Shown piece after piece: positions 9,018 through 61,708 of a stretch of 64,000 nt of DNA. This DNA comes from Capsulimonadaceae bacterium (GTDB lineage Bacteria; Armatimonadota; Armatimonadia; Armatimonadales; Capsulimonadaceae): positions 1,444,280-1,508,279 of the forward strand of contig OZ251980.1 in NCBI GenBank assembly GCA_965246745.1, written 5' to 3'. The notes below the pieces were generated by a model. The model searched no databases and was not told where the DNA came from. It was given only the letters and a program-made list of their open reading frames with translations. The translations under genes and the position numbers were made by a program. Each line of letters begins with the position of its first letter. Position 1 is the stretch's first letter.

Positions 9018-9080
9018 GGTCTTCCGTGATTTTTCTTCCGTGACTTTTCTTCAGTGACTTTTCTTCCGTGACTTTGGAAC
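9018..9080. repeat. Four tandem copies of the ~14 bp unit CTTCCGTGACTTTT in the tadG-cpaB intergenic spacer
   Basis: The sequence reads tcttccgtgattttt cttccgtgactttt cttcagtgactttt cttccgtgacttt. Confidence 0.7.
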
Positions 9081-19718: not shown

Positions 19719-20864
19719 TTATAACACAGGTTCGGTGATTGTGCCAGCGGCGAACAAAACGCGCGTCAGGGCGGCCCCGGAGCCAAGCTCGGCTTGAGCG
19801 CCTTCCAGATACCGGACATTGTAAATCACCGACAGCGCGGCAAAGGCCGGGCCGGCCCGGCGCAGGCGGTAGGCGGCGCGGGCGGCCGGCAGCAGCAGCG
19901 CCCGCAGCGGTGCGCCGAGGCGCGGGGCGGCCAGAACGACGCGGGCCAGCAGGCGGGTGGCGCGATTGCGGGCGGCGTAGCCGTGCCGCACGGTGTCCCA
20001 CGACGTGTCCCCGCGCTGCGCCCGGACCACATCCAGGCGGCCATACGCAAACGGCACGGCGAGCCACGACGCAAACTTCCGGCGGGGCCGGTGGATGCCC
20101 CGCGCGTCGGGCGCGTACACAAACTCGACGCCGCGCTGTTTTTCGAGCCGCACGGCCAGCTCGACATCTTCCTGACGCGGGAACTGCTCGTCGAAGCCCC
20201 CGACGGCGACCAGGTGCCGGCGGCGCACGGACGCATTTCCCGAGTAAAAGTGATGCGGCCCGCAGCCGTCCCACTCGCCGGTGCGCCAGGCCGTGTACTG
20301 CTTTTCCAGCATCGCGTGCTCCCACGCAATCCACACCGGCTCCTGCCACAAAAGCGCCGGGTCGGGCACCATCGGCGCAATCACGACTGCCGTGTCGCGG
20401 CCGGCATGCCGGGCGGCATGGACCGCTAGAAACTCGGGGGCCGGCTCCACATCGTCGTCGAGAAACACGACAATCTCGCCCTGCGCTTCTTCAATGCCGT
20501 GGTTGCGGGCGCGGGCCGGACCGGCGTTCGCTTGGAACACGGGTCGCAGCGCAAACGGCGCGGCGCGGGCGTACTCGGCCAGAAACGCGTCGGTGCCGTC
20601 CGTGCTGCCGTCGGAAACCACCACCGCCTCAAACTGCGCGGCGGGAAACGTCTGCCGGGCCAGGCCGTCCAGCGTTTTTTGCAGGCTGTCCCGGCGGTTG
20701 AAAGTCGGGATGACGACGGACAGGAGCGGCCCCCCCGCCCCAATTCTGGGGAGCCGGAGAGGAAACGAGGCTTCCACTGACTCTGTATTGCTCCCCAGAA
20801 TTGGGGTTTTATTGGGGTGGGCGGGGGGGCTATCTCCAAAAACAGGGAAGTTTGGGTCGCTCAT
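19719..20864 (-). CDS. Family 2 glycosyltransferase (GT2)
   Basis: The motifs LSVVIPTFNRRDSLQKTLDGLARQ and AVVVSDGSTDGTD and the DxD region are present. The start ATG at 20864 overlaps the stop of the upstream acyltransferase gene. The N-terminal 40 codons span a palindromic element. Confidence 0.85.
   Translation of the reverse strand: MSDPNFPVFGDSPPAHPNKTPILGSNTESVEASFPLRLPRIGAGGPLLSVVIPTFNRRDSLQKTLDGLARQTFPAAQFEAVVVSDGSTDGTDAFLAEYARAAPFALRPVFQANAGPARARNHGIEEAQGEIVVFLDDDVEPAPEFLAVHAARHAGRDTAVVIAPMVPDPALLWQEPVWIAWEHAMLEKQYTAWRTGEWDGCGPHHFYSGNASVRRRHLVAVGGFDEQFPRQEDVELAVRLEKQRGVEFVYAPDARGIHRPRRKFASWLAVPFAYGRLDVVRAQRGDTSWDTVRHGYAARNRATRLLARVVLAAPRLGAPLRALLLPAARAAYRLRRAGPAFAALSVIYNVRYLEGAQAELGSGAALTRVLFAAGTITEPVL
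20727..20830. repeat. GC-rich palindromic element, copy 1 (TIR family GCCCCCCCGCCCCAATTCTGGGGAG), inside the GT2 N-terminal coding region
   Basis: The left arm is gcccccccgccccaattctggggag and the right arm is ctccccagaattgggg...ggggtgggcgggggggc. This is the same family as the copies at 59979-60107 and 60620-60749. Confidence 0.75.
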
Positions 20865-29127: not shown

Positions 29128-29175
29128 TATCTCGGCTCCATCAAGCTGCTTTGTCCTTAACAGGCGTTCCGTCCA

Positions 29176-29278
29176 GCGGCCTAACGGCCAAGCTCACCTG
29201 CGACACCGCAAGCAACCGAAACGGCTGACGACGAAACAACGGCGCGGTGGCGTCGGCTGCAGCGCATTGTTAGGCCGC
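29176..29278. mobile_element. Integron attC site 1
   Basis: The inverse core (GCCTAAC) is at 29179-29185 and the core (GTTAGGC) at 29269-29275. Both sit within the ~103 bp imperfect palindrome GCGGCCTAACGG...GCATTGTTAGGCCGC. Confidence 0.8.
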
Positions 29279-29285
29279 AGACAGG

Positions 29286-29558
29286 TCAGCGCCGGTTACG
29301 CTGACGAGCGGTGGCATAACAGCCCGCGCAAAGATAGGTGATCTGTGCAAATGCTTCTGTCTCATCATCCCATTCTCCTCCTGCCGCAAGCAAACGTCTG
29401 TCGCATTCCCCACACCAGGCATCCGGGCAGGGATCATCACCTGTATCGTCTGCGTGGAAGAAGCCTAGCCCAACACCCCGGACTAGATGCTTACAGACAA
29501 AGGTAACATAGCTTTCCCCATGAACGGGGCAGATTACTAGCTTGGTTTTGTCACTCAT
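29286..29558 (-). CDS. Cys/His-rich small cassette protein, hypothetical
   Basis: 90 aa with CPVH, CKH and CPDAWCGEC...CAGC motifs. It is followed at its 3' end by attC-1. Confidence 0.5.
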   Translation of the reverse strand: MSDKTKLVICPVHGESYVTFVCKHLVRGVGLGFFHADDTGDDPCPDAWCGECDRRLLAAGGEWDDETEAFAQITYLCAGCYATARQRNRR

Positions 29559-29595
29559 CTTTGCAACGTTCCGCCGACTGCGATGGCTATGTTCT

Positions 29596-29699
29596 GCGGC
29601 CTAACGGCAGCGCTCACCGGCGACACCTGACTGCACAGCCTTCCGACCTTGCAGAGCAAAGAGACAGGTGGCGTCGGCTGCAACGCATTGTTAGGCCGC
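29596..29699. mobile_element. Integron attC site 2
   Basis: It reads GCGGCCTAACGGCAG...GCATTGTTAGGCCGC and overlaps the stop of the ankyrin gene. Confidence 0.8.
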
Positions 29700-30014
29700 A
29701 CCATGTTCGGCGAACGCCAATAATACCTCTTGATGAAGTAAACCGCGCGTCAAATCTTGTGCTAATTCCTGCGCTAACTCTTGTGCTGTTTTACCAAAAA
29801 GATCTCGTGCTGTCGTGTCCGCCCCAAACTCAAGCAATAAACGTACTAAGTTAGCCTGTCCCGTGTAAGCTGCTGCCATTAAAGGAGTAGAACCAAGAGG
29901 GTCTTTGCCGTTGACATCTGCTCCCTGTTCCAGTAGCTGACGTACAATCTCTAGGTGGCCCATGTTGACTTCGTCATGGAGTTTAGATATAAGCCACTTT
30001 TCATTTGCTTCCAT
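29691..30014 (-). CDS. Ankyrin-repeat protein (cassette ORF)
   Basis: The ANK repeats are GADVNGKDPLGSTPLMAAAYTGQANLVRLLLEFGAD. Confidence 0.8.
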   Translation of the reverse strand: MEANEKWLISKLHDEVNMGHLEIVRQLLEQGADVNGKDPLGSTPLMAAAYTGQANLVRLLLEFGADTTARDLFGKTAQELAQELAQDLTRGLLHQEVLLAFAEHGAA

Positions 30015-30035
30015 TTTTTGTTCCGGCTACGCGGT

Positions 30036-30137
30036 GCGGCCTAACGGCAAAGCTCAGCCGCGCTACCGCCTGCACAGCCACCCAATCTCGCTGAGGCAAT
30101 GGCGGCGGTGGCGTCGGCTGCAGCGCATTGTTGGGCC
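30036..30137. mobile_element. Integron attC site 3 (core variant GTTGGGC)
   Basis: It reads GCGGCCTAACGGCAAAG...GCATTGTTGGGCCG, with the same architecture as sites 1 and 2. Confidence 0.75.
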
Positions 30138-30180
30138 GTGACGGTTCCGCTCTCGAACGCTAGAAGTCCACCGACAAACG

Positions 30181-33784: not shown

Positions 33785-33911
33785 GCGAGGGAGTGAACTC
33801 CTCTCGCTAGTTATAGTCGTCCTTCGGACGAAAGACTGCAACCGTTTGGCTGCTTCTCGTCCGCAGGGCGACATTTTACAGCGAGAGGAGTTCACTTCCT
33901 CGCTTGCTCCC
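33785..33911. repeat. ~125 bp structured repeat, copy A (terminal inverted repeats gcgagggagtgaactcctctcgct / agcgagaggagttcacttcctcgc; internal cgtccTTCGgacg hairpin)
   Basis: Read directly from the sequence. It is homologous to the copy at 41531-41655. Confidence 0.7.
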
Positions 33912-34390
33912 TCTTGCCCCGTGGTTGTGTTTCCCTACGACCTGCCGCGCCGCCCGGAGCCGAATCGATTCGTCGCTGCGTTTCCCGGCGAGACTGTGCT
34001 GCAATTCCGCCACCATGTTGTCCAGCTTAACCGCCTGCCGTGGCGTAGATTTATCCGCCAGGAAAACCCGGTGGCAAGCGCACTCATGGCGAAGATGAAG
34101 CAGTACGAACGCGCCATTGAGCAGTTTATGCCGACAGAAAGAACATCGTGGAAATCCTGACCGACTGGGAATGTAAGGGTATCGCACAAGGCATCGTGGA
34201 GGGCATCTCCCAGGGTTTGACGCAGGGCAAAGAAGCGCTGGTCGTTCCCCTGCTCCGCCGCCGCCTCGGCCCCGACACTCTCACCGCCCGCCTCGACACC
34301 CTCACCGCCGCCCATCTCGACGACCTCGGCGAAGCGTTGTTGGACTTCCGCACCGCCGCCGATTTACAGCAGTGGCTTGACCGGAATTAG
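33904..34390 (+). pseudogene. 3' remnant of an Rpn-family (PD-(D/E)XK) recombination-promoting nuclease / putative transposase gene (DUF4351 C-terminus), frameshifted
   Basis: Two adjoining frames encode ...AKMKQYERAIEQFMPTERTSWKS and EILTDWECKGIAQGIVEGISQGLTQGKEALVVPLL...LLDFRTAADLQQWLDRN. The QG-rich repeat followed by a helical tail is typical of DUF4351. A second 3' fragment (…LLDFRTIADLEQWLDQH) lies at about 35430-35497. Confidence 0.5.
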
Positions 34391-34405
34391 CGCAGCAGCG
34401 GCCTG

Positions 34406-34645
34406 TTAGACTTGATCATAAGCCGCCAAGAACTCGTCCCGCGAAATCCCGCTCTGGGTCAAAACCGTTCGCAGCGTAGACCCCTTAATCACTTTGTGGT
34501 TCGGCAATGTCAGTGGAGTCCTACTCCCATCGGCGTTCTCCCGCAGAAGCGCCAGATGATTGCCTTCCCGCACCAGCCGAAACCCCAGAAGCGCCAGCGC
34601 TTTGATCACCTTCTCACGCGGCGCATCCACCGGAAAGCGCGGCAT
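34406..34645 (-). CDS. hicA: HicA-family mRNA interferase toxin
   Basis: 79 aa. The segment KVIKALALLGFRLVREGNHLALLRENADGSRTPLTLPNHKVIKGSTLRTVL matches the YcfA/HicA fold pattern. Confidence 0.75.
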   Translation of the reverse strand: MPRFPVDAPREKVIKALALLGFRLVREGNHLALLRENADGSRTPLTLPNHKVIKGSTLRTVLTQSGISRDEFLAAYDQV

Positions 34646-34869
34646 CAGGCCGCCACCGCAAGCTCGGCGACAAAGGCTTCCAGCACCGGCGTTTCGGTTT
34701 CAATTACGTCCGGCCCGAACGTCTCCAAATGAAACGCAATCGCCGACTTCACATCCGCCAGCGCCTCCTCATACGTCTCGCCTTCCCCCACCACACCCCC
34801 CGCAATGCCGAGCGGATACGCCACATACCCGTCGCTGTGCCGCTCCACCACAATCTTAAACTGCCTCAC
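34645..34869 (-). CDS. hicB: HicB-family antitoxin (UPF0150)
   Basis: 74 aa. The segment FKIVVERHSDGYVAYPLGIAG…GETYEEALADVKSAIAFHLE matches the HicB N-terminal domain pattern. Confidence 0.75.
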   Translation of the reverse strand: MRQFKIVVERHSDGYVAYPLGIAGGVVGEGETYEEALADVKSAIAFHLETFGPDVIETETPVLEAFVAELAVAA

Positions 34870-35143
34870 GTTTCGCCTCCTCCAAGTGGCCCTTTCCTGC
34901 CCCGTAGGGCGTAGGGCATGCCCCTACCCTCCTCTCCGGGTCAAGAAGCTGCGTCAAGCCTGCCCGATACTCCGTAAGCACTTCCTCCGCCAGCCGGACC
35001 AGAGCCGGTGACGACTGCGTAAAAGATCGCTGCCAGCGCTGCTCGTCTTCCAGTTCTTCTAAAATCAGAGCCGCAATCGCATCTTGATCGGGTTCCGCCA
35101 GTTGCTGCACCTGAGCATAAGCGCGTTCTAATAATTGGGTCAT
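34856..35143 (-). CDS. hypothetical acidic helical protein (antitoxin-like)
   Basis: 95 aa with no motif recognised. It is overlapped by the hicB start. Confidence 0.3.
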   Translation of the reverse strand: MTQLLERAYAQVQQLAEPDQDAIAALILEELEDEQRWQRSFTQSSPALVRLAEEVLTEYRAGLTQLLDPERRVGACPTPYGAGKGHLEEAKREAV

Positions 35144-35181
35144 CTCAAAGCCTCACAATATCTCATCTGCGGCAGGTTCCC

Positions 35182-35340
35182 CTATTCAATCCGGTCTGCC
35201 GGCACCCGCAGGGCAAGCACCTGGGCGCGAACCACGGACTCCGACCGCCTCTGACCATAGGCAAGCCCCCTCGGCAATTCAGGAACTTCACTCAGCCACC
35301 GGCCATCTTCTTCTTGTTCGACTTCAATGGAAAGCGGCAC
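35182..35340 (-). CDS. small HicB-like (UPF0150) ORF that is not in the ORF track (under 60 aa, GTG start)
   Basis: Reverse-complement translation gives MPLSIEVEQEEDGRWLSEVPELPRGLAYGQRRSESVVRAQVLALRVPADRIE. This matches the HicB N-terminal consensus (IE.E.EEDGRW.AEVPELPGC.A.G.T.EEA...). Confidence 0.45.
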   Translation of the reverse strand: MPLSIEVEQEEDGRWLSEVPELPRGLAYGQRRSESVVRAQVLALRVPADRIE

Positions 35341-35593
35341 AATTTCACCTCACAGACAAGATAACGACATGATACCCGGTCTCTTCTTGGTCTTGATGAC
35401 AAGAAAGCGAATGCCAGACGCCCCAGTGCCATCGCTCACCGCCCTTCTCGACTTCCGCACCATTGCCGATTTAGAACAGTGGCTTGACCAGCATTAGCGG
35501 GGAGTAATCGAGAGGCTTTGGTTAAGCTGGCCCACCCGTGTCGGTGTAGCGCATTGTTCGACCGCAAATAGCGCTCGCAGCGTGTTTAGAGAG

Positions 35594-36328
35594 TTACTCT
35601 GGTTGCCTCTGTGTTATGAGAAAGTCATCGGTAAGCTCTTCAATGGGTAGATAGGCTCTTATGATAGCAAAAGCGTCTGGTATAGTAATCTGCCCATCTA
35701 TACGAAAATGCTTCGTGTAACCTGTTCCCTTAATTTTGTTCCCGTCTGCAAACAGACGCAGTTTGTCTTCGGGGCTAAAAGATATAGTAGCCCCGTCCAG
35801 ATGAATAAATGTAGTCGCGTCAGGTGTCAATCGACCATGTACATAAAAAACCTCTGGCGATTGTGCAATATCTTCCCAAGCTTCTAATTCAACTGCGCTA
35901 TCTTTCCGGTCTACTGCGATGTGAACGAGGAGATCTGCAACAAAACCAGTAGCGCTAAATCGCTCAGGCATAGGAACCTGAAACCTAGCCTTTATCAGTT
36001 TTTGCAGGCGTACCTCTTGTAGAGCACGCTCAAAAGGCACTCCATACAATGTCGCACGGCCCATGATTGGAGGAAAAGCCTTTACGCTTATAGCTGCCGC
36101 TTCCCATAGGTCAAGCTTTTGGACAAGAATATCTACGACTCTGTTGATATACGGGACAGGGTAGACCTGAAAATCGCTTCGATGCTTTAAGTGTAGCGAA
36201 TAATCTGCGGCCTGCTGCTGATGCACAATCCTTAGATCATTGGCCTGGACAAGTCCATCGTGATTTAGAAGTTCTGAAAGTGTGACAGCATTTTGTCTTC
36301 GCATTCTTTGTTGCTCTATCTTATTCAT
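35594..36328 (-). CDS. hypothetical protein (244 aa) with no recognisable domain; last gene of the AT-rich three-gene operon
   Basis: GC is about 42-45%, against a ~69% host. It shares the minus strand with the two ORFs upstream at short spacing. Confidence 0.5.
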   Translation of the reverse strand: MNKIEQQRMRRQNAVTLSELLNHDGLVQANDLRIVHQQQAADYSLHLKHRSDFQVYPVPYINRVVDILVQKLDLWEAAAISVKAFPPIMGRATLYGVPFERALQEVRLQKLIKARFQVPMPERFSATGFVADLLVHIAVDRKDSAVELEAWEDIAQSPEVFYVHGRLTPDATTFIHLDGATISFSPEDKLRLFADGNKIKGTGYTKHFRIDGQITIPDAFAIIRAYLPIEELTDDFLITQRQPE

Positions 36329-36439
36329 ATCGATTAGGATTTACACGGTTGAAGCCAAACCAAGAGATTTTAATGCCTTGTTCTCGCGATTCTACTCAAA
36401 GATCGCATGGAAACATCCAGCGAAGCAAGCATTGGAGTA

Positions 36440-36730
36440 TTAGACCCAGAAGAATAACTTTATGATAAGATCACAGAAGGCCTGTTTACGAGCCAGCTTG
36501 TCGGCTTCGATTTTTCTTAGGCGCTGACTTTCCTCTTCCGCAATGCGAGATTCTTCTCTAACCGCGTCTTTGTACGCCCGGTAAGCAGGATCGGCTGCTT
36601 CCCGTTCCTCCTCTTTTCTTATCTCAGCTTCCCGGTAGGCTATTTCACTTGCTCTCACGCTGTCGCGGATAGCGTTTTCAGTTAATGAAACGGCTTTCTT
36701 AATTGCCCATTTTGCAATAGGTCCTATCAT
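36440..36730 (-). CDS. small hypothetical protein (96 aa): amphipathic charged helix plus a C-terminal hydrophobic tail (FCDLIIKLFFWV)
   Basis: It is the middle gene of the AT-rich operon. Confidence 0.4.
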   Translation of the reverse strand: MIGPIAKWAIKKAVSLTENAIRDSVRASEIAYREAEIRKEEEREAADPAYRAYKDAVREESRIAEEESQRLRKIEADKLARKQAFCDLIIKLFFWV

Positions 36731-36757
36731 TAGCAGGTCTCGCTTTCTATTGAAGCG

Positions 36758-37969
36758 TTAAGGTAGTGTCTGAGGTATGAGCAGAAATATATTTGCAGCC
36801 TGCCCTTTAGGGGCATTTTTAGGCCGAAGTTGTTGCCACTCGTTTAGGCTGATGCCTGTTTGTTGAAGTGCCGCAACTTCGTCCCGGTATGCTTCAAACC
36901 GCCTCATGTCCTCAATAACGCCTTCTGCCTTCGTGAGCAACTCCGGCAAAGTTTGGGCGTAATACTCTTGCTTCTTCACTCTATATTCTTTTATTTTCTT
37001 TCTTGTCCTGTTCACTGCATCCTTATTGGACGCTACTTCAATGTTCCAGTATGTAACCTTGGCAAAGGCGGAAAAGCCTGTCTGGGCCTGGGCCTGAGCT
37101 TGATTATTTTTGCTTGAGATAAGTATATTCTCAACCCTCTCCAATTCCGCTTGTTGTTTCTTGCAGATATCTGAGTCGGATGCCTTCACAGATGACATTT
37201 CAAGTCTTCGGACATCTTTTTCCAAAGAATCTTCAAGCCGCCATATCCTAGCCACGAGGTCTGTGCATTGAGATAAGTCTATACACCATAGATGATTTGT
37301 ATCGAAAGCTGTATATTTCTTCTTCAAGTAGGCATGCACAAGTGTTCTCATGGTTTCAGAATACTGCTCTAGCTTTGATGTAGCAAGAACCATTTCGCCT
37401 AGTTCTATATGGCATCTAATTTCGGCAGTATAAGCGAGGAACAATGTCGAAATCAGCTTGTCTGCAATCTCACTGCCGGCAGCGATCTGGGCATCGCATT
37501 CTGCCTCGAAATAATGCTGTGCCTCCAACATACGATTGACCGCGTGAGTTGCAGTAATTCGCTTTGTGTCCGGGCTTTGCGTCATCATTGCATCGTTCGC
37601 TTGCCGAATTGCGGCCACAAAGTTTCCATAGAAACTCAAATCAAGTTTTCGATCTATCTGGGTTAAGAGAGCATTTTGTTCGGAGATGGACGTTTCCAAA
37701 AGCTTGATGCGGTTGAGAATGATTGTAAAGCCCGTCACAGAAACACCAAGATTAAGCACACCTACGACATCGCCAAACTTCAACAATCGCGAGGCTGAAC
37801 TAAGCATCTGTCCTGGTGAGACCTGAGTAAAGTCAGTTTCGCGTAGCCAGGCAACAACTGATTTAGAGTCAACTTCACGAATGACACCGCCAACTCTCTC
37901 ATAGTTGCCATTGTCTAAGCCATTCGCAATCCAATCGGGTATCTGAAAAACTGCTTCAACTGTATTCAT
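36758..37969 (-). CDS. hypothetical protein (403 aa), mostly alpha-helical, with one N-proximal hydrophobic segment (VVGVLNLGVSVTGFTIIL); first gene of the AT-rich operon
   Basis: GC is about 42%. No family motif was recognised. Confidence 0.5.
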   Translation of the reverse strand: MNTVEAVFQIPDWIANGLDNGNYERVGGVIREVDSKSVVAWLRETDFTQVSPGQMLSSASRLLKFGDVVGVLNLGVSVTGFTIILNRIKLLETSISEQNALLTQIDRKLDLSFYGNFVAAIRQANDAMMTQSPDTKRITATHAVNRMLEAQHYFEAECDAQIAAGSEIADKLISTLFLAYTAEIRCHIELGEMVLATSKLEQYSETMRTLVHAYLKKKYTAFDTNHLWCIDLSQCTDLVARIWRLEDSLEKDVRRLEMSSVKASDSDICKKQQAELERVENILISSKNNQAQAQAQTGFSAFAKVTYWNIEVASNKDAVNRTRKKIKEYRVKKQEYYAQTLPELLTKAEGVIEDMRRFEAYRDEVAALQQTGISLNEWQQLRPKNAPKGQAANIFLLIPQTLP

Positions 37970-38187
37970 CTTATTCTCCTTGATCTACCTTACACCATTA
38001 ACACTACTGCCGCAGAATGAAAAGCGGAAACTCAAACCCGTTTTTCTGCCTTGATCTTCGCATACCGTTTCGCCGCCCGCTTGCTATTTTCCTGCAAACA
38101 TTTTCGCCACAAATCCTAAATCCTTGCCCGCGAAGGCGGCCACTCGGCGCTTCGCCCCACAGCGTAGAACTTCAGTTCCACGCCCCA

Positions 38188-38216
38188 TTGACAACCCTAT
38201 CGCTTCTTTGCGATAA
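38188..38216 (+). promoter_or_regulatory. sigma70-like promoter (TTGACA, 18 bp spacer, GATAAT) upstream of the XRE gene
   Basis: The sequence is ttgacaaccctatcgcttctttgcgataatg. Confidence 0.5.
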
Positions 38217-38222
38217 TGCCCC

Positions 38223-38525
38223 ATGCCGCACACTACCAGCGACGCCGCCGAAATCATGGACATTGAGTTCGGCGCTGACCCCAACTATCAGAAGATTCGC
38301 GCCGAGCAGCGGATCAAGTCTCAGGCGGCGCAGGCGATCTATGACGCCCGCACTGCCGCCGGGCTGTCCCAAACCCAGCTTGCTAAGATTGCCGGGACGA
38401 CGCAATCCGTAATCTCGCGCTTGGAAGACGGCGACTATGACCGGCATTCGCTGGCGACACTGGGACGGATCGCCGCCGCGCTGGGTCGCCGGGTGGAAGT
38501 GCTTTTTGTTCCCATCTTGCCGTGA
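38223..38525 (+). CDS. XRE-family helix-turn-helix protein (HigA/antitoxin-like)
   Basis: The HTH is LSQTQLAKIAGTTQSVISRLEDG. Confidence 0.7.
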   Translation: MPHTTSDAAEIMDIEFGADPNYQKIRAEQRIKSQAAQAIYDARTAAGLSQTQLAKIAGTTQSVISRLEDGDYDRHSLATLGRIAAALGRRVEVLFVPILP

Positions 38526-38609
38526 CGCCGACTGCGTGGTACAATAAATATTATTGTGAGTGCTTCTTTCGCGATAAAAAGCTTGCCAGAGAATAGGAGA
38601 TGAACAAGA

Positions 38610-39410
38610 GTGGTTTACGAATGCGAAAAATGCAATGTGCCGCTACCGCCAGGAGTAAGAGCTTGCCCAAATTGCGGGGAAGCTTTTGATGATGTAGTGC
38701 CGGCTGATGCTGAAGTTCCTCAGCGTGGTTTTCGTCCCAGCAATGCTTCGGCAGGTTCAACACAATATCAAGCGCCAACGCCGCCGATGCCTCAGCCTCC
38801 AAATCCTATTCCGGTTTATGCCGCCCCCGCAACCACTACCCCTGCTCTGGCACGGGGATGGGTGATGGTCCTTACATTCCTCTTCTGCTTCCCGCTGTTT
38901 ATTATCGGTGTTTGGCAACGGCCCGATTGGTCGCGTGGCGCAAAGGCTTTGGCGACTGTTGCTTTCGTTATCATGCTATGTATAATTGCCGGCATCAACA
39001 ATGCTACAAGCAATAATACTTCTCCATCCTCATCTTCAGCGCCGTTGATGCCAACGCAACACAGCCCAAGTTCAGCTAAGTACAGTCCACCTGCGGCACC
39101 GGACACAGCACCGTCTCCTGCACCTGACGCCAGTGATACAGAATCAAAGCCGGATTTAGAAGTAATAGATCACAAGTCGGTCTCAGAGGAATATGGGCGC
39201 TCAGTTGTTGGCACAGTTCGCAACAACACGGACCATAATTACGGTTACGCCCAAGTAGAGATCAATCTCTATGACAAAAGCGGAAGTCAAGTCGGGTCTA
39301 CGGTCGCCAACATTAACAACTTAGCACCCCATAGCCTCTGGAAATTCAAAGCTCCTATCTTAGAAGATAGTGCAGTTCGCTTTGAGATTAAAGATGTAAC
39401 AGGGTTTTAG
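38610..39410 (+). CDS. zinc-ribbon, TM segment, FxLYD-domain protein
   Basis: The N-terminal C-x2-C…C-x2-C ribbon is CEKCNVPLPPGVRACPNCGE. It has one TM segment and a Ser/Pro-rich linker. The C-terminal region YAQVEINLYDKSGSQVG carries the FxLYD motif. Confidence 0.55.
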   Translation: MVYECEKCNVPLPPGVRACPNCGEAFDDVVPADAEVPQRGFRPSNASAGSTQYQAPTPPMPQPPNPIPVYAAPATTTPALARGWVMVLTFLFCFPLFIIGVWQRPDWSRGAKALATVAFVIMLCIIAGINNATSNNTSPSSSSAPLMPTQHSPSSAKYSPPAAPDTAPSPAPDASDTESKPDLEVIDHKSVSEEYGRSVVGTVRNNTDHNYGYAQVEINLYDKSGSQVGSTVANINNLAPHSLWKFKAPILEDSAVRFEIKDVTGF

Positions 39411-39452
39411 AAGCGTCTTCGAGACCGGCAGCGGTATAAATGCCGCCTTGCC

Positions 39453-41504
39453 GTGAGCCGCGCGATATGGTACAATGGTGATTATCGTGAGCAGTTTCCT
39501 TTCGCGGAAAGAGTGACGCAACCTATGGCAGACGACAAACAGACTTCACACGCACAGACGCCGTACCGGGTGAAAGTCCCGGATATTGATTACTGGCGCG
39601 GCAAGATCGGCTGCCAGACCGGGTGCCCGGTCAAGACCGACGCGCGGGGCTATGTGATCGCTATCGCCGAAGGGCGCTACGACGATGCGTATGCCATCGC
39701 CCGCGCTCCGAACCCGTTTGCTTCGATGTGCGGGCGCATCTGCGGCGCTCCCTGTGAGGTCAAGTGCACACGCGGCAATATCGGGTCGGACACGTCCGGG
39801 CCGGTCTCCATCCGGGCGTTGAAGCGGTTCGCGACCGAGCAGTACGGGGTCGAGAACTTGAAGAACCTGCACAAGTCTTTGGAGTATTCCAATGCGCGGG
39901 GGTCGGCGTACCCGGTGCAGGACAAGGAAAAGATTGCGGTGGTCGGCGCGGGCGTTGCCGGCATGACGGCGGCGCACGATTTGGCGCGGCTCGGCTACCA
40001 GGTCACGGTCTTTGAGGAGCTGGAAGTCCCCGGCGGGCAGATGGCGACGGGGGTTCCCATTTACCGTTTGTCGCGCGAGCTGATGAACTTAGAGATCGCG
40101 GCCATCTGCGAGCTGGGCGTGGATTTGAAACTCGGCGTCTCGGTCGGCAAAGACGTGACCATCCCCGAGCTGCGCGAGCAAGGGTACAAGGCGTTTATTG
40201 TCGCGGCGGGCTACATGCAGGGGCGGCCGCTCACGATCCCCGGCTCGGACAAAAAAGGCGTCCATATCGGCATCAATCTGCTGCGAGAAGTGAATTTAGG
40301 CAAGCCGTACACGGTCGGCGAGAAGTGCGTGGTCATCGGCGGCGGCAATGTCGCGATGGATGTGGTCCGAATGACGGTGCGTACTCCCGTCGTGGCGGGA
40401 TTGTCCAACTTGGGCAAGCCGAAAAACTACGCGATGACCGATATTGCCCGGACTTTGGCGCTGACGGCCAAGTCCATTGACTGCATCTTCGGCGAGTCCC
40501 GCGCCCAGATGAACGCCGACGAGTACGAGATCGAAGAAGCGGTCTTGGAAGGGGTCAAGCTCTGGCCCCAGCGGCTGCCGATTGAAATACTCGGCGACGA
40601 GCATGTCACCGGCATACAAACGAAGAAAGTCAAGTCGCTGATTGACGCCCAGGGGCGCTTCAACCCGCAGTATATTGACGGCTCCGAAGAAGTCTTCCCG
40701 TGCGACTCGGTGATTGTTTCCATCGGCCAGATGGTGAACTGGAACTTTGTGACGGGCATTGAAGACCTGAAGCGCACGCCCCGAGGCACGATTGAAGTGG
40801 ACCCCGAAACTTTGCAGTCTACGAGCCACCCGGACGTGTTCGCGGTCGGCGATATTGCGCTCGGGGCGCGATTGTTTATTGACGGCATCGCGTCGGCGCA
40901 GAAATGCGCGGTTGGGGTAGACGAGCACCTCTCGGGCGTGACCCAAAAGCTGATCAAGCGCGGCTACATGCGGGCGCTGCCGATTGTCAACTACGCCATG
41001 CCGCAGAAGTACGACAACTTCATTCGCCAGGAGCCGCCGGAGCGGGACATCGCCAACCGCTCGGCGGGCTTTGATTTGGTGGAATTCAATTACACCGAAA
41101 AAGCCGCGCGGGAACAAGGCATGCGCTGTTTGCGTTGTCATGTTAACGTGGTCTTCGATGCCGAGAAGTGCATTCTCTGCGGCCTCTGCATCAATATCTG
41201 CCCGGAAAGCATCCTGAAGATGGTCCCGGTCACCGATGTGGTCGGCGACGAGGAAGTGGCCCGGCTGATTGAAGCCAAGTACGGCGTCCCGCAGGACGAA
41301 TTAAAGCCCGACGACGGGACTATCATGCTGATGGACGGCACCAAGTGCATCCGCTGCGCCCTGTGCGCCAAAATCTGCCCGATGGACTGCATTTCGATGG
41401 AAGCGTTTGAATACGAGGAAGAATTGGTCCCCATTTCGACCCGCACGCGAACGTCCCGCCCGCCGGAGCCGTCGCTCATCGGATACAAGGGTGTTGGGGT
41501 ATAA
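39453..41504 (+). CDS. FAD/NAD(P)-dependent oxidoreductase (glutamate synthase small-subunit-like) fused to a 2x[4Fe-4S] ferredoxin domain
   Basis: Two Rossmann motifs (IAVVGAGVAGMTAA; CVVIGGGNVAMD) are present. There is an N-terminal Cys cluster (CGRICGAPCEVKC). Two C-terminal motifs (CILCGLCINICP and CIRCALCAKICP) are 4Fe-4S signatures. The start is either 39453 or the Met at 39525. Confidence 0.75.
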   Translation: MSRAIWYNGDYREQFPFAERVTQPMADDKQTSHAQTPYRVKVPDIDYWRGKIGCQTGCPVKTDARGYVIAIAEGRYDDAYAIARAPNPFASMCGRICGAPCEVKCTRGNIGSDTSGPVSIRALKRFATEQYGVENLKNLHKSLEYSNARGSAYPVQDKEKIAVVGAGVAGMTAAHDLARLGYQVTVFEELEVPGGQMATGVPIYRLSRELMNLEIAAICELGVDLKLGVSVGKDVTIPELREQGYKAFIVAAGYMQGRPLTIPGSDKKGVHIGINLLREVNLGKPYTVGEKCVVIGGGNVAMDVVRMTVRTPVVAGLSNLGKPKNYAMTDIARTLALTAKSIDCIFGESRAQMNADEYEIEEAVLEGVKLWPQRLPIEILGDEHVTGIQTKKVKSLIDAQGRFNPQYIDGSEEVFPCDSVIVSIGQMVNWNFVTGIEDLKRTPRGTIEVDPETLQSTSHPDVFAVGDIALGARLFIDGIASAQKCAVGVDEHLSGVTQKLIKRGYMRALPIVNYAMPQKYDNFIRQEPPERDIANRSAGFDLVEFNYTEKAAREQGMRCLRCHVNVVFDAEKCILCGLCINICPESILKMVPVTDVVGDEEVARLIEAKYGVPQDELKPDDGTIMLMDGTKCIRCALCAKICPMDCISMEAFEYEEELVPISTRTRTSRPPEPSLIGYKGVGV

Positions 41505-41530
41505 TAAGCTAGGACACAATGCACGCAGGG

Positions 41531-41655
41531 AGCGAGGGAATAAATTCCTCTCGCTGAATGGCATCCTTCGGATGTAGGACTAGCACGCGTTTGGCTTTCT
41601 TCTCATCCGAAGGATGCCATTCAGCGAGAGAAGTTTACTTCCCCGCTTCTCGCTC
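41531..41655. repeat. ~125 bp structured repeat, copy B (gcgagggaataaattcctctcgct … cagcgagagaagtttacttccccgcttctcgctcc) with perfect 21 bp internal inverted arms bearing TTCG/GAAG loops
   Basis: It reads ctgaatggcatccTTCGgatg … catccGAAGgatgccattcag. It is homologous to copy A at 33785-33911. Confidence 0.7.
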
Positions 41656-41711: not shown

Positions 41712-42164
41712 ATGCCCGCAACTTTAGAAATGCCGACCTCGGCACCGACTTTTATGCCTGAAACCCTGCCCGCGCCGCTGAGCCTCACCGACGCCGCGGC
41801 GGCGGAAGTGACCGCGCTGATCGCCCAGCAGGACCGCACCGACCTCGCCCTGCGCGTGTATGTCGCCGGCGGCGGCTGCTCCGGCCTGCAATACGGCATG
41901 GCTTTGGACGAGAATATCGAGCCGGGCGACGAGACCTTCGCCTTCGGCCCGATTACTCTGGTCGTGGACTCGACCTCGCTGCGCTACCTGACCGGCGCGG
42001 TTGTGGACTACATCCACACCGACATGGGCGGCGGGTTTAAGATCGAGAACCCCAATGCCACCAAGTCCTGCGGCTGCGGCTCGAGCTTCAGTGCCGGCGA
42101 CGACGAGGCCGCCGGCCTCGACACCAAAGCCGGCGGCGGCTGCGGCTCCTGCGGCTGCCACTAA
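41712..42164 (+). CDS. erpA: Iron-sulfur cluster insertion protein ErpA/IscA (HesB family) with a Cys-rich C-terminal extension
   Basis: The HesB signature …SCGCGSSF is present. The tail GGGCGSCGCH is unusual. Confidence 0.8.
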   Translation: MPATLEMPTSAPTFMPETLPAPLSLTDAAAAEVTALIAQQDRTDLALRVYVAGGGCSGLQYGMALDENIEPGDETFAFGPITLVVDSTSLRYLTGAVVDYIHTDMGGGFKIENPNATKSCGCGSSFSAGDDEAAGLDTKAGGGCGSCGCH

Positions 42165-42237
42165 GCCGAAGCGATACGCGCACACAGACAGGGGCGGGCC
42201 AAACGGCCCGCCCCTGTTTTCTTTTTAGGAGATCATT

Positions 42238-42663: not shown

Positions 42664-45288
42664 ATGCTGCTGAAAGAAACATTGCTAGACTCTGGCTGGA
42701 ACCTTGCTCACACCGTGACGTTGCCGTCGCGTGAGAAACAAACCTTTGAGAGCAGCGGGCTGGCTTTATCCGAAGTGACCCACCGCTTTTTGGCAGCATC
42801 AAAGACTGGGCTTTACCTGCACCAGCGGGAGGCTGTGAGCAGGTTTCTTGACGGGTCGAATGTCTGCATGACAACCGGCACGGCTTCGGGGAAAAGTCTG
42901 CCGTTTTATCTTGCCGGCATTGATCAACTGGCGCGAAATCCCAGTTCCAAAATTATCGCTGTTTATCCGATGAAGGCGCTCGGCTATGAGCAGGAAGAGC
43001 GCTGGAAGCAGGCGCTGGCGCAAGCCGGACTGACCGCACACGTCGGGCGCATTGACGGTCAAGTCTCGACAAAAGCACGGCCGGAGATTTTACGCCGCTC
43101 GAGCGTTGTGATTTTGACGCCGGATGTCATTCACGCATGGCTCTTGAACAATCTCGGCGACAAAGCGGTCTTGACGTTTCTGAGGCAGGTCGCGCTGATG
43201 ATTGTTGATGAAGTCCACAGCTACACCGGCGTATTCGGCTCCAATTCCGCATTTTTGTTCCGTCGGCTTCAGCACGCGATGACTATGCTGCGAAGCAAGC
43301 CGAGCTATATCTGCGCGTCGGCGACAATCGCAAATCCGCAGGCGCATTTGGCAAAGCTGTTCGGCGCGGAGTTCGCGCTGATCGGCTCTGATTCGGATAC
43401 CTCGCCTCGCCATGCCGTTGAAGTTCAGCTCGCTACTCCTCGCCCAGAGGCTGATATGCTGTCGCAAGTGACCGATCTCCTACAGCAGATTGCCGAAAAA
43501 TCAGATTCCAAGTTTATTGCGTTTGTAGACAGCCGCAAGCAGGCGGAGCATATTTCTTCAATCCTGGCGCGAAGTCAGGACCAGTCACAGGACGAGGAGC
43601 AGGAGACGGAAGCGCATTTCGACTTTGACTTTCTGCGACGGCTGAACGTGTTGCCGTTCCGCTCGGGCTTTGAGGAACATGACCGCTCTATTATCCAGGA
43701 GCGGCTGAAAAGCGGCAGCCTGCGCGGCGTGGTCAGCACAAGCGCTTTGGAACTCGGCATGGACATTTCCCAACTTGGGACGGGAATTCTTGTCGGCGTT
43801 CCACGCTCCTCGACCAGCCTGTTTCAGCGAATCGGACGCATCGGGCGTCATGGCTCCGGCACGGTGGTCATTGTCAACACCGGAACCATCTATGATGAAG
43901 CTATTTTCAGAAACCCGCAGGAGCTGTTAAACCGGCCGATGGCGGAAAGCTCGCTGTACCTAGAAAACACGCGAATTCAATATATTCATGCGCTCTGTCT
44001 TGCCCGTCAGGGCGGCGAACATGATAAAGTACGAAGCGCGGTCAGCGGGGAAGAAACGACGGAGATGGAAACAGAAGTCGCCTGGCCGGCCGGCTTTCTC
44101 GACATCTGCCGCCGTGAGCGGCTCGGCGAAGTGCCTGCCGATTTGCAGAATATGAAAGCAGAAGCCGGCGAGGAGCCAAACCATACCTTTCCGCTTCGGG
44201 ATGTTGAGAGTCAATTTAAGATTGAGTTCAAGCAAGGCCCGGAACAGCGTCAGCTCGGCGCGGTTTCGCACGGCCAAATGATGCGCGAAGCCTATCCCGG
44301 CGCAATTTATTACTACATCACTAAGCCTTACCGTATCTATAGTGTTGACATGCGAAGCCGCGTGATCCGCGCTCGCGCCGAAAAGCACTACACGACAAAC
44401 CCTCAGAACTTGCCTACCTGTGTCTTCCCGAACTTATCTGAAGGAAACATACACCGCGCCAAAAGCCATGATACACTTTCAGCGGTCGAGTGCAACTTGC
44501 AAATTCGTGAAGCCGTCTGCGGATACAAAGAGCGGCGTGGGCCGAACAAGGCTTTCCACGGATACCCCATACTATCAACGACTTCGGGAATTTCGTTCGG
44601 GCTAGATCGGTTTGTTCGTAACTATTTCACGACCGGCATTATCGTGACGCATCCTGCACTGAATTGGGACGGGGTTGACTGCAATTTGATGGCAAGCCTG
44701 ATTTATGAAGGGTTTTTGATGCTTGTTCCGTTTGAGCGTCAAGATATGGGCGTCGCTGTAGATAAACATCGAACCCCGCGCGAGGGAATCGAGCAAGGCA
44801 GCAAATTTATTGCTCTGCACGATCAGACCTACGGCAGCCTGCGCCTTTCGGGAAGGCTTTTGGAAGAGCAGTGGCTTAGGGGGACACTGGCGAAGGCAGT
44901 GGAGCTTTGCCGAGAACAAGAAGTCACGTCGGAACACCCAAACACGCTGGCAGCGCTTGAAGCAGTGTCCGCGTCGGCAAACCAAGCGGAAACCGCTTCT
45001 GTGTTCGGCACAGATAGTGCATCGGCGTCCGCACCGGAAGATTGTGCGCTGGTCATTTTGCCCGGCAGCCGGGGGCTAAAGATAGATACCGGTGCCGTGG
45101 AAGAGTTTGAGGTAGAAGATGTGTTTTATCATCCTTCGTTCAACGGATTGAGCTACCGGGGCAGACGACATTCCTTGAAGGGAGAAACGAGCAAAAATGT
45201 CGTTCCTATCTCTGCGCTAAAAGAAATCCCTGGAGAGAGCCTGATGGGCTACTACGATTTCAACACTGGAGAAATCGCGCCTATATAG
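42664..45288 (+). CDS. DEAD/DEAH-box superfamily 2 helicase, YprA/MrfA-like (probable C-terminal Zn-binding/DUF1998-like region)
   Basis: Motif I (TGTASGKSL), motif II (DEVH), motif III (SAT) and motif VI (QRIGRIGRHG) are all present. The C-terminal 300 aa carries scattered Cys residues. GC is about 50%, against a ~69% host. Confidence 0.75.
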   Translation: MLLKETLLDSGWNLAHTVTLPSREKQTFESSGLALSEVTHRFLAASKTGLYLHQREAVSRFLDGSNVCMTTGTASGKSLPFYLAGIDQLARNPSSKIIAVYPMKALGYEQEERWKQALAQAGLTAHVGRIDGQVSTKARPEILRRSSVVILTPDVIHAWLLNNLGDKAVLTFLRQVALMIVDEVHSYTGVFGSNSAFLFRRLQHAMTMLRSKPSYICASATIANPQAHLAKLFGAEFALIGSDSDTSPRHAVEVQLATPRPEADMLSQVTDLLQQIAEKSDSKFIAFVDSRKQAEHISSILARSQDQSQDEEQETEAHFDFDFLRRLNVLPFRSGFEEHDRSIIQERLKSGSLRGVVSTSALELGMDISQLGTGILVGVPRSSTSLFQRIGRIGRHGSGTVVIVNTGTIYDEAIFRNPQELLNRPMAESSLYLENTRIQYIHALCLARQGGEHDKVRSAVSGEETTEMETEVAWPAGFLDICRRERLGEVPADLQNMKAEAGEEPNHTFPLRDVESQFKIEFKQGPEQRQLGAVSHGQMMREAYPGAIYYYITKPYRIYSVDMRSRVIRARAEKHYTTNPQNLPTCVFPNLSEGNIHRAKSHDTLSAVECNLQIREAVCGYKERRGPNKAFHGYPILSTTSGISFGLDRFVRNYFTTGIIVTHPALNWDGVDCNLMASLIYEGFLMLVPFERQDMGVAVDKHRTPREGIEQGSKFIALHDQTYGSLRLSGRLLEEQWLRGTLAKAVELCREQEVTSEHPNTLAALEAVSASANQAETASVFGTDSASASAPEDCALVILPGSRGLKIDTGAVEEFEVEDVFYHPSFNGLSYRGRRHSLKGETSKNVVPISALKEIPGESLMGYYDFNTGEIAPI

Positions 45289-48567: not shown

Positions 48568-49017
48568 AACGGCATGTCCTTTGTATGCGAAAGCCCGGCA
48601 GAGTTTGTGCGAACGTCACCGTATTATACTGCACAAACCATGCCGAAGGCAAGAGCAGGCAGGCGGCGGAGCGAATAACCCGGTATCTTTACCGGAGAAA
48701 AGAGCGTTTCGGGCGGTTCCGGCGCAGAAAAGCCGGTATTTGTCGGGGTAACTGTTTAGCGCCCCCTGCCGATAATCTTGAATGTCTGACACGCCAATCG
48801 CTGCTCGACAAAGGCAAACCTGGGGAAACGCAGGGACGCAAAGCACAGGGCCTTCGCATGTAAACAATCACCGTGCATGGCAGCCTGGCCTCCGAAAGTG
48901 CGACAGCATGAATATACACGCAACGCGCCCGGTCCCCTTCTAGAAAGGACCGGGCGTTTTGGCGTCCGCGTCCGCATCGCCCTACAGCCCGGTAATCGCC
49001 GTGCCGATAACAACGGC

Positions 49018-59971: not shown

Positions 59972-61708
59972 TTGACAAGCAGAAGCGGCCCCCCCGCCCC
60001 CAATAATGGGGGAGTCCGAAAAGACATATCTGTGAGGGCGCGGCTTGCCGCGCCCTCTGTTCCTCGTCTGACTCCCCCATTATTGGGGGCGGGGGGGCCG
60101 CTTCTGCGGACGGCCCTCTCCGGCCTGCTGCTGGCGGGGGCGCTGCCGCACCTGGACTGGGGCTGGCTGGCGTGGGTCGGCCTTGCGCCGTTTCTCGCGC
60201 TGTTTCCGTTTCGCAGCAAGCGGGCGGCGTTTGGGCATGGGTTTCTGCTCGGCGTGTGTTACCTGGGCGGAATGGCCTACTGGGTCGCCGTTTTTGCCGC
60301 GCCCATTCTCGGCCCGGCCCTGGGCGTGCTCGGCTGGGCATTGGTGACGGCGTATCAGGCGTTTTACCTTGCCGTCTGGGCGCTCGGGGCGCAGTGGCTG
60401 GCGGGGCGCGGGGTCTGGGCGTGGCGACTAGGCGTGCCGGCGCTGTGGGCGGTGGTGGAATGGTGGCGGCAGTCGGGCGACCTCGGCTTCGGCTGGGGGG
60501 ACCTCGCGTACACGCAGCACCTGGCCCTGCCGGTGCTTCAGCTCACGAAGCTCTCGGGCATTTGGGGCCTGGCGTTTTTGATTGTTCTGGTGAATGTCGC
60601 GCTGGCGGAAGTGGTGAAGGCCCCCCCGCCCCAATTCTGGGGAAAAGCCCCCCCGCCCCAATTCTGGGGAGCCATATGGATAAGAAGGGCGCAGCAAGCA
60701 GCGCCCCTACGGGTTCTTTTCCGGCTCCCCAGAATTGGGGCGGGGGGGCAATTTCCCCTGGCCGTGGCCGCGCTGCTTGTCACTGTTCTAGCCTGCGGCG
60801 GCGTCAGCCTGCGGACCGAGCATCTTGCGCCGACTTTTACAGCGGCGGCTTTGCAGGGCAACATCTCGCAGAATGTCGAGCAGGACGCGGCGTACAAAGC
60901 GCGGGTGACTGCGACGTTCGGTGCCCAAACGCGAAGCGCGGCAGCGCGGGGGGCGACTTTGGTGGTCTGGCCGGAAACAGCGTATCCGGGCTATTTGCAG
61001 AGGGCGGACACAAGCCGCGCCCAAGTCGCGGGGGTTCTCGGCGAAACAGGGCAGACGGCGCTGATTGGGGGGGTGGACTTCGACCCGGCGGAGCGCAAAA
61101 ACGCCAATGCGCTGTTTGCGCTTTCCCCAAGCGGGGCCGTCACAGGCGTCTACCGCAAGCAGCACTTGGTGCCGTTCGGCGAGTTTGTGCCGGGGCGGAA
61201 ATGGCTGCCGTTTCTCGCGGCGCTGCATGTCACAAACTTCGACATGGCGGCCGGCACAGGGGAGCAGGGGCTGCTGGGCGGCGGGCCGGGCATCGGCAAG
61301 ATCGGCGCGGCAATCTGCTTTGAGTCGTCGTACCCGCGCGTCCTGCGCGAGCAGGTGCGGCAGGGGGCGGGGCTGCTGGCGATTTCGACCGACGACGCTT
61401 GGTTCGGGCGGACGGCGGCGGCGCGGCAGCATGCGGCGATTGCGGCGGTGCGGGCGGCGGAAACCGACCGTTATTTAGTCCGCAGCGCGGCGACCGGCGT
61501 GTCGCAGATTGTTGATCCGACCGGGCGGGTGCTGGCCGAAGCGGACTTGTTTCAAGCGTCGGTCGTCAGCGCCCCGGTGCAGTCCCGGTCCACCGTGACG
61601 CCGTATGTCCGCTGGGGCGACTGGTTTATCGGCGTCTGCGTCGTTTTAATTCTCGCCGTTAGTGCTCGTGCTCGCCGCGCAGGAACCGCTCGTAGTTCGG
61701 GCCGCTGA
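59972..61708 (+). CDS. lnt: Apolipoprotein N-acyltransferase Lnt, carrying two in-frame palindromic-element insertions
   Basis: The TM N-domain is LLLAGALPHLDWGWLAWVGLAPFLAL… The CN-hydrolase domain carries …LVVWPETA…ICFESSYP… (E/K/C triad context). The annotated TTG start lies inside element copy 2. Confidence 0.85.
   Translation: MTSRSGPPAPNNGGVRKDISVRARLAAPSVPRLTPPLLGAGGPLLRTALSGLLLAGALPHLDWGWLAWVGLAPFLALFPFRSKRAAFGHGFLLGVCYLGGMAYWVAVFAAPILGPALGVLGWALVTAYQAFYLAVWALGAQWLAGRGVWAWRLGVPALWAVVEWWRQSGDLGFGWGDLAYTQHLALPVLQLTKLSGIWGLAFLIVLVNVALAEVVKAPPPQFWGKAPPPQFWGAIWIRRAQQAAPLRVLFRLPRIGAGGQFPLAVAALLVTVLACGGVSLRTEHLAPTFTAAALQGNISQNVEQDAAYKARVTATFGAQTRSAAARGATLVVWPETAYPGYLQRADTSRAQVAGVLGETGQTALIGGVDFDPAERKNANALFALSPSGAVTGVYRKQHLVPFGEFVPGRKWLPFLAALHVTNFDMAAGTGEQGLLGGGPGIGKIGAAICFESSYPRVLREQVRQGAGLLAISTDDAWFGRTAAARQHAAIAAVRAAETDRYLVRSAATGVSQIVDPTGRVLAEADLFQASVVSAPVQSRSTVTPYVRWGDWFIGVCVVLILAVSARARRAGTARSSGR
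59979..60107. repeat. GC-rich palindromic element, copy 2: perfect 37 bp TIRs (gcagaagcggcccccccgcccccaataatgggggagt) flanking a 55 bp core that contains its own hairpin (gagggcgcggcttgccgcgccctc)
   Basis: Read directly. It overlaps the lnt 5' end. Confidence 0.8.
60620..60749. repeat. GC-rich palindromic element, copy 3: duplicated left arm (gcccccccgccccaattctgggga x2) and right arm ctccccagaattggggcgggggggc
   Basis: It lies inside lnt and is translated in frame as KAPPPQFWGKAPPPQFWG…LPRIGAGG. Confidence 0.8.

Follow-up and report, generated by a model that had tools for sequence, protein, structure and literature searches.

Repetitive extragenic palindromes (REPs), the hairpin-forming doublets built from them (REPINs) and the tyrosine transposases that are associated with REPs (RAYTs) have, to our knowledge, been studied almost wholly in Proteobacteria. 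In the pattern described for these REPIN/RAYT or REPtron systems, each REP family has one single-copy, vertically inherited Y1 gene that is flanked by REPs (PMC3116915, PMC5581495, PMC6006769, PMC3733652). Genes of IS200 Group 3 are also single copy, without duplicates, and have abundant flanking 16-mers (PMC5581495). The phylum Armatimonadota is named neither in Bertels 2017 (PMC5581495) nor in the HUH phylogenomics paper (PMC6006769). Here we analyze a 64,000-nt stretch of DNA (the window) from a Capsulimonadaceae bacterium (GCA_965246745.1, contig OZ251980.1, positions 1,444,280–1,508,279 of the forward strand), which contains two palindromic repeats, copy A and copy B (Table 1), on either side of a 7.7-kb segment. 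The original prediction had described them as two related structured repeats and had offered, as possible explanations, a family of miniature inverted-repeat transposable elements (MITEs), structured small RNA genes or att-like boundaries of an inserted element. We consider it probable (approximately 80%) that A and B are independent members of a REPIN-like family mobilised in trans, as single-stranded DNA, by a Y1 transposase. The placement of the 7.7-kb segment between them is a coincidence.

A 24-nt arm pattern (GCGAGGGARTRAAYTCCTCTCGCT) has four matches in the window, namely both arms of copy A and both arms of copy B, against an expectation of 0 in dinucleotide shuffles. This confirms that the two structured repeats are related, and the near-palindromic 24-nt ends described for them were present in both copies. 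Perfect 21-bp arms claimed for copy B also hold, the perfect inverted stretch being about 27 bp. The limits required a slight correction: the elements and their starts stand, except that copy B begins at 41532 and not at 41531, while the ends given as 33911 and 41655 run 8–9 nt too far. Scanning of a species-representative genome collection with the arm pattern yielded at least 101 eight-kb blocks, nearly all from metagenome-assembled genomes (MAGs) of Capsulimonadaceae or 'Armatimonadales' (phylum Armatimonadota); a single complete chromosome of 3.96 Mb, OZ255718.1, accounts for at least 23 of the blocks. The L-numbers used below denote sampled genomic blocks or loci, and the repeat-bearing blocks total about 0.87 Mb. 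A profile built on 52 clean copies was searched in the 101 blocks and the window and detected 116 copies, 104 of them full length. Typical copies were also seen in a MAG that bears the label Janthinobacterium lividum (JBPBQB01 contigs; L020, L077, L082), probably through mis-binning of the contigs or a wrong label.

Each element is a doublet of inverted arms, approximately 110–135 bp in length, with the layout T, spacer (3–10 nt), I, centre, I′, spacer and T′. The outer T hairpin (GCGAGGGARTRAAYTCCTCTCGC) spans 23–24 nt and consists of a 9-bp stem with a bulged T and a 4-nt URAA loop; in the left arm of copy A the bulged base is T18 and the loop is TGAA. The inner I hairpin is the 13-mer CGTCC-TTC-GGACG. 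As this is a 5-bp stem with a 3-nt loop, the UUCG tetraloops of the original prediction had been read in the wrong register. Two subtypes could be distinguished. One, to which copy B belongs, has a short GAATRG spacer and often a CATCC/GGATG inner stem, and the other, exemplified by copy A, has a longer and variable spacer. The CATCC/GGATG stem of copy B differs from CGTCC/GGACG by a compensatory G-C to A-T change, and across the family this variant is mostly one-armed (21 discordant vs. 2 concordant elements). The centre (about 16–49 nt, median 29) is poorly conserved and shows only a faint common consensus. It folds no better than shuffled sequences (mean z of −0.29), with palindromy confined to its AAAGA...TCTTT edges. 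Fold-back copying as the source of the centre was rejected, since it folds no better than shuffles and the weak consensus points to common descent.

Both copies fold very stably into one long imperfect hairpin each (A, −84.7 kcal/mol, z = −13.3; B, −83.6 kcal/mol, z = −12.4), and their complementary strands fold about equally well. The conserved parts form a true palindrome: profile scores of the two strands differ by 1.6–4.2 bits for A and B and by a median of 1.4 bits across the family. The earlier statement that A and B lie in the same orientation is thus meaningless, and orientation relative to the flanking gene was undecidable for 64 of 75 copies, the elements being too symmetric.

We compared the possible structures on an alignment (A3) of 93 copies and 150 columns. 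A model of four small hairpins was 98.3% paired, with changes on both sides at 12 pairs (129 cells); these counts are of sequences and not of independent events, and descent within subfamilies contributes to them. The covariation score of this model was 0.165 vs. 0.089 in shuffles, none of the 500 shuffles scoring as high, and slid controls gave only 41–51% pairing. In the T arms 97.6–98.1% of positions were paired across the 93 copies. Pair 9-14, for example, was AU in 60 copies, GC in 30, CG in 2 and unpaired in 1, while pair 36-47 was GC in 66, AU in 26 and unpaired in 1. The long-hairpin model was 91.4% paired and failed at the covarying columns of the small hairpins (24 unpaired cells at pair 36-114 and 13 at pair 9-142). 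As the small hairpins are better kept than the long one, we concluded that they are the conserved unit. G-U intermediates were nearly absent and Watson-Crick pairs were kept on both strands, a pattern in the alignment that would favor recognition of the hairpins as DNA.

The family is dispersed and extragenic. Outside plausible coding sequence lie 98 of the 116 copies, typically 20–35 nt from the flanking open reading frames (ORFs); 49 copies have tandem flanking genes, 9 convergent and 3 divergent ones. In one block (L079) copies bracket rplK within the conserved nusG-rplK-rplA cluster. Target-site duplications are absent in 84 of 103 copies, and the remainder show chance matches of 1–4 nt. 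A check of copy number and target-site duplications, suggested in the original prediction, therefore found elements that are abundant genome-wide, show no association to insertions and mostly lack such duplications. This is the abundance that had been expected of a plain repeat; the lack of covariation that had been named alongside it was not observed, as the small hairpins do covary. Elements with both arms greatly outnumber true solo T hairpins (92 vs. 2). Two copies in L003, inverted around hisD, are 1 nt apart in sequence and have unrelated flanks, which indicates recent copying of the whole element, including the centre.

On the 5′ side the flanks are rich in purines, on the 3′ side in pyrimidines. 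In 18 of the 103 copies the palindrome runs at least 4 nt into the flanks, and in 8 it reaches at least 7 nt. Continuation over 7–13 nt into unrelated flanks was seen in L098, L038, L041, L063, L026, L006 and L100 (in L098, GAGCGCGTGAGGA on one side and TCCTCACGCGCTC on the other). Such extension may reflect insertion into the centre of pre-existing hairpins, or it may be a feature of the insertion mechanism.

A within-genome paralogue screen of ORFs led to a 139-aa Y1 transposase (P0121) at L090:4487-4990(-). The protein scores 92 bits against Pfam Y1_Tnp and 82 bits against the NCBIfam IS200 model (cutoff 55), and full repeat copies border its gene on both sides, at 4326-4447 and 4969-5094, the Y1-plus-repeat unit measuring about 0.77 kb. 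Four of its homologues of 60–67% identity (L107-L110) occupy a single slot, SurE-AttH-[repeat]-Y1-[repeat]-CDF-DnaJ-SecE-NusG. Synteny extends to L090, with 66–78% DNA identity across the region, and the profile places the repeat on both sides of the Y1 gene in 5/5 genomes. In an alignment of 12 proteins, Escherichia coli RayT among them, neither the HUH histidines nor the catalytic Tyr varies, and several of the listed homologues, 43–60% identical, carry the JGI name 'REP element-mobilizing transposase RayT'. The exact P0121 protein was found on one contig only, and homologues of 60–67% identity on 1–2 contigs each. Many of the homologues sit on contigs of about 1–1.5 kb, as would be expected of a gene boxed in by repeats, which fragment short-read assemblies. 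We detected neither a second Y1 copy nor any other recurrent transposase ORF in the sampled repeat-bearing blocks, and repeats exceed the Y1 gene by at least 20 to 1. The gene and the repeats are associated, and the enzyme would be the one that moves them.

Two further Y1 paralogues are each flanked by a nested-palindrome repeat of their own, of the same build. One, at L011:253-985 (OZ255718.1), is 49% identical and flanked by 105-nt inverted repeats, which contain a GGGGCG-ATGAA-CGCCCC hairpin and the I hairpin of the family of A and B (CGTCCTGCGGACG); four tandem 15-mers (GACCGGGGCGATGAA) are also present at this locus. The other, at L023:5055-5739 (CAXTER010000071.1), has the hairpins CACGGGG-CTGAAC-CCCCGTG and CCCGC-CTT-GCGGG, and its type of repeat is dispersed over 6–10 blocks. 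In both cases a repeat overlaps the 3′ end of the Y1 gene.

Taken as members of such a family, A and B would be non-autonomous elements that depend on a HUH/Y1 transposase for mobilisation in trans. The gene of this enzyme, present as a single copy elsewhere in the genome and flanked on both sides by the same elements, would form with them a REPtron-like locus. Recognition of the small hairpins by the enzyme, probably on single-stranded DNA, would be followed by cutting and rejoining of the DNA beside them. Copies would enter intergenic DNA without duplicating the target. Within the transcript of an operon, an inserted copy would then be a very stable hairpin, and whatever effect it has on the mRNA would be secondary. 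The genome of the window would be expected to carry the gene as well.

Several observations weigh against this explanation. P0121 reaches only 36.6 bits in the NCBIfam model REP_Tyr_transpos, under its cutoff of 80, and the nearest solved structures are the TnpA proteins of ISDra2, Sulfolobus and IS608 rather than E. coli RayT, which shares 17% identity with the Y1 protein. E. coli RayT, used as a phmmer query against the full set of ORFs from the loci and the window, retrieved nothing. There is no Y1 gene within the 64 kb window, so that for the window's own genome the link is made through homology of the repeats alone. The foot of the hairpins shows no evident tag, be it GTAG or unpaired CGTC; CGTC occurs only inside the I stem. 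No pair of filled and empty sites was adequate to define the cut sites, the only such pair among the 101 blocks being copy B of the window vs. L102, where the intergenic alignment is too diverged. Finally, the centre is far more diverged than the arms, which a simple model of a recent burst does not predict.

Comparison with described systems showed that the family is of a known kind, REPIN/RAYT-REPtron. As in REPINs, short imperfect palindromes form inverted doublets that fold into a long hairpin (PMC3116915, PMC2817692, PMC3333891, PMC6006769). Also shared are the many extragenic copies without target-site duplication, the large excess of doublets over singlets, the single-copy, syntenic and hence vertically inherited Y1/HUH gene flanked by its own repeat family, and the fact that several gene-family pairs can share one genome. 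The variant features are an enzyme that is IS200/IS605-like and below the cutoff of the RAYT model, two distinct hairpins (T and I) per arm instead of one REP, and three parallel systems; the GTAG tag of RAYT systems is missing. The nearest described analogues are the TIRtrons with their TIRYT genes (Di Nocera 2013, PMC3733652) and the single-copy IS200 Group 3 genes (Bertels 2017, PMC5581495), the likeness being one of features. The repeats analyzed here are unrelated to the published GGGGWSAS-type repeats. With IS608 and ISDra2 (IS200/IS605) the family has in common the fold and family of the transposase, with its HUH and Tyr motifs, the hairpin recognition elements and the lack of target-site duplication. 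Those elements, however, are multi-copy and horizontally mobile, with asymmetric ends and a defined target tetra- or pentanucleotide, whereas here the gene is single copy and syntenic and the repeats are symmetric doublets. ERIC/IRU, Correia/NEMIS, RUP and BIME elements resemble the family in being extragenic, hairpin-forming, about 100–150 bp long and co-transcribed with their neighbors, but have no sequence in common with it. Correia and RUP elements differ also by their target-site duplications and DDE-type parents, and for ERIC no transposase is known.

The bracketing position of A and B invited the explanation that they are att-like or recombination boundaries of a 7.7-kb inserted island, since they flank an Rpn-like remnant, HicAB, orphan genes and a low-GC stretch. 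In four assemblies of relatives (L102-L105), though, orthologues of the oxidoreductase that lies inside the bracket have the IscA-type (Fe-S_biosyn) gene, which lies outside it, as the direct neighbor at a gap of 55–128 bp, and no repeat copy occurs anywhere in the four 22-kb loci. Copy B is thus a lineage-specific insertion that splits an ancestral gene pair, the oxidoreductase falls outside any island bounded by it, and the segment does not come and go as the unit that had been suggested. The upstream neighbor of the oxidoreductase does differ in every relative, as an island would have it; by the same token, the variability of the region does not depend on the repeats. Within the segment, low GC is limited to the middle, to a block of about 3 kb at 35200-38000 with 44–50% GC vs. 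a background of about 60%, so that the description of the whole 7.7 kb as low-GC had to be given up; the oxidoreductase region at 39.5–41.5 kb, with 57–64% GC, resembles its surroundings. The two copies are of different subtypes. Their identity is about 72–81% depending on the measure, the figure of 72% comparing with a median of 67% for random pairs, and in mutual relatedness they rank only 26th and 33rd of 103. The same comparison led us to reject a local duplication, of the sort seen in L003, as the origin of A and B. No integrase was seen, and at a density of about one copy per 50 kb, as estimated from secondary copies in the sampled blocks, a neighbor within 8 kb of another is unremarkable. 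The reading of A and B as boundaries of an island is therefore refuted. Only slightly less far-fetched is that of a classical MITE, an internally deleted insertion sequence (IS) of the DDE-transposase type with 24-bp terminal inverted repeats. The inverted ends, the small size, the high copy number and the intergenic sites are what a MITE would show, and the family is indeed mobile, non-autonomous and present in many extragenic copies. Yet target-site duplications are lacking in most copies, the sampled blocks hold no recurrent DDE parent, the associated enzyme being a Y1 (HUH) transposase, and terminal repeats of DDE elements have no need of hairpin ends with compensatory changes.

Two other explanations fit some of the data better, but are still unlikely. 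The elements could be host RNA elements, either intercistronic hairpins that stabilise or terminate transcripts or small RNA genes, whose spread is secondary. Very stable folding, compensatory changes in the stems and the position of copies between co-directional genes, near stop and start codons, all agree with this. However, no Rfam family was found at A or B at gathering thresholds, and a permissive search returned only a plant miRNA-precursor model at 42 bits vs. a gathering score of 140, a generic hairpin resemblance. No strand preference can be defined, and the near absence of G-U intermediates, with Watson-Crick pairs on both strands, fits recognition at the DNA level better. Scans revealed promoter-like sites at neither copy, and copy B also lacked anything resembling a terminator; one terminator-like match falls in copy A, on the minus strand at 33853-33838, inside the variable centre. 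The oxidoreductase-IscA pair is instead closed by a strong intrinsic-terminator-like hairpin at 42186-42219. Copy B is dispensable in the four relatives, and the linkage to the Y1 transposase would be left unexplained. Structured small RNA genes, as had been proposed, are thus unlikely for elements without a definable orientation that lie 20–35 nt from ORFs inside operons. The repeats could, alternatively, be solo ends or miniatures of an active, multi-copy, selfish IS200/IS605-type insertion sequence, which we also regard as having little chance of being right. The protein scores above the cutoff of the NCBIfam IS200 model and below that of the RAYT model, its nearest solved structures are IS200/IS605 TnpA proteins, and the unit of about 0.77 kb has the size of an IS200. 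Against this stand the occurrence of the gene once per genome (P0121 on one contig, homologues on 1–2), its retention in the same syntenic slot in five genomes of 66–78% DNA identity, the absence of a second gene copy in approximately 870 kb of sampled blocks, and repeats that exceed it by 20 to 1 or more; moreover, IS200/IS605 ends are not full palindromic doublets. Mobilisation in trans of a REPIN-like family by a resident Y1 enzyme accommodates these findings best.

For the annotation of the window it follows that A and B are to be masked as dispersed REPIN-like elements and not used as limits of an island, the true variable or foreign stretch being the low-GC block of about 3 kb at 35.2–38.0 kb and its neighbors. 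More widely, the Armatimonadota case, in which the enzyme is IS200-like, each arm has two hairpins and a genome can hold several families in parallel, extends the known range of long-lived intragenomic replicators and provides material for testing whether domestication occurred more than once. The systems typified by A and B, L011 and L023 may have a common plan, consisting of an outer specificity hairpin, an inner hairpin of CGTCC/CCCGC type whose loop is TTC/TGC, and a free centre. That the first two types have their inner hairpin in common would suggest a two-part recognition, with a common binding hairpin and a family-specific one. We raise, tentatively, the possibility that Armatimonadota harbor an independently domesticated branch of IS200-type Y1 transposases that radiated into at least three such co-resident gene-plus-repeat systems. 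In that event, REPIN-like 'replicators' would have arisen a second time, outside Proteobacteria, and the evolution of hairpin specificity could be studied in a natural system.

Table 1. Parts of copies A and B and the genes on either side of copy B (window coordinates).
Feature	Position	Strand	Basis or remark
Copy A, palindromic repeat, long-spacer subtype	33785..33903		Profile 95.3 bits (+), 91.1 bits (-)
Copy A, outer T hairpin, left arm GCGAGGGAGTGAACTCCTCTCGCT	33785..33808		0 mismatches to arm pattern
Copy A, inner I hairpin CGTCC-TTC-GGACG	33818..33830		Sequence; A3 pair counts, helix 2
Copy A, variable centre AAAGACTGCAACCGTTTGGCTGCTTCT	33831..33857		Pairing confined to purine-rich/pyrimidine-rich edges
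Copy A, right-arm inner hairpin CGTCCGCAGGGCG	33858..33870		One mismatch
Copy A, outer T′ hairpin, right arm	33880..33903		1 mismatch to arm pattern
FAD/4Fe-4S oxidoreductase gene	39453..41504	+	Orthologues 74–91% identity
Copy B, short-spacer subtype, GAATGG spacer	41532..41646		Profile 85.6 and 84.0 bits
Copy B, T hairpin, left arm GCGAGGGAATAAATTCCTCTCGCT	41532..41555		Arm pattern match
Copy B, left inner hairpin, CATCC-TTC-GGATG variant	41562..41574		Sequence and A3 pair counts
Copy B, right-arm inner hairpin CATCC-GAA-GGATG	41604..41616		Sequence
Copy B, T′ hairpin, right arm	41623..41646		3 mismatches to arm pattern
IscA/HesB-type Fe-S assembly gene	41712..42164	+	Context

Copy A sits in a divergent gap between a 227-aa gene (start codon at 33720, minus strand), located upstream of a Band_7/flotillin gene, and an Rpn-like remnant. 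Copy B begins 27 nt past the stop codon of the oxidoreductase gene and ends 66 nt ahead of the start codon of the IscA gene. The low-GC block holds three ORFs, all on the minus strand (35594-36328, 36440-36730 and 36758-37969), and is probably foreign DNA. Pfam and PADLOC searches with these three genes gave nothing usable, the only match being JukB at E = 0.0018.

Further features were observed in and next to the bracketed segment. Two Rpn/DUF4351-like gene remnants lie at 33920-34390 and 35327-35499 (+); a direct repeat of 50 nt (34343-34392 and 35450-35499, 86% identical) makes up their 3′ ends. At 34406-34869 (-), inspection of the translations by eye points to a toxin-antitoxin pair resembling HicA/HicB. 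Beyond the IscA gene, an 874-aa DEAD/DEAH helicase is encoded at 42664-45288 (+), with best PADLOC matches to the defence helicases SngC (6.7e-29), BrxHI (6.9e-28) and Cas3. In neither L102 nor L104 was such a helicase called in the interval from IscA to the S9 peptidase, which indicates that the flank on the IscA side is also variable.

The window contains a second, unrelated palindromic repeat, GCCCCCCCGCCCCAATTCTGGGGAGCC (core CCCCAGAATTGGGG), at five sites, including 20729-20806 and 60620-60740. It was also found in L104 (11983-11996), L103, L069, L074, L077 and L087, and in L104 it fills the oxidoreductase-IscA gap that is held by copy B in the window. This repeat is probably another REP-like family. 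Elsewhere in the window, a full-length c-di-GMP-I riboswitch (RF01051) at 48803-48896 (+) scored 62.1 bits vs. a gathering threshold of 35 and was the sole window match at Rfam gathering thresholds. Three tandem units of about 420–440 bp occupy 29165-30138 and contain conserved blocks of 34–43 nt, e.g., GCGGTGGCGTCGGCTGCAGCGCATTGTTAGGCCG, with 91–97% identity. A 14-nt tandem repeat, TCTTCCGTGACTTT, is present in four copies at 9020-9075.

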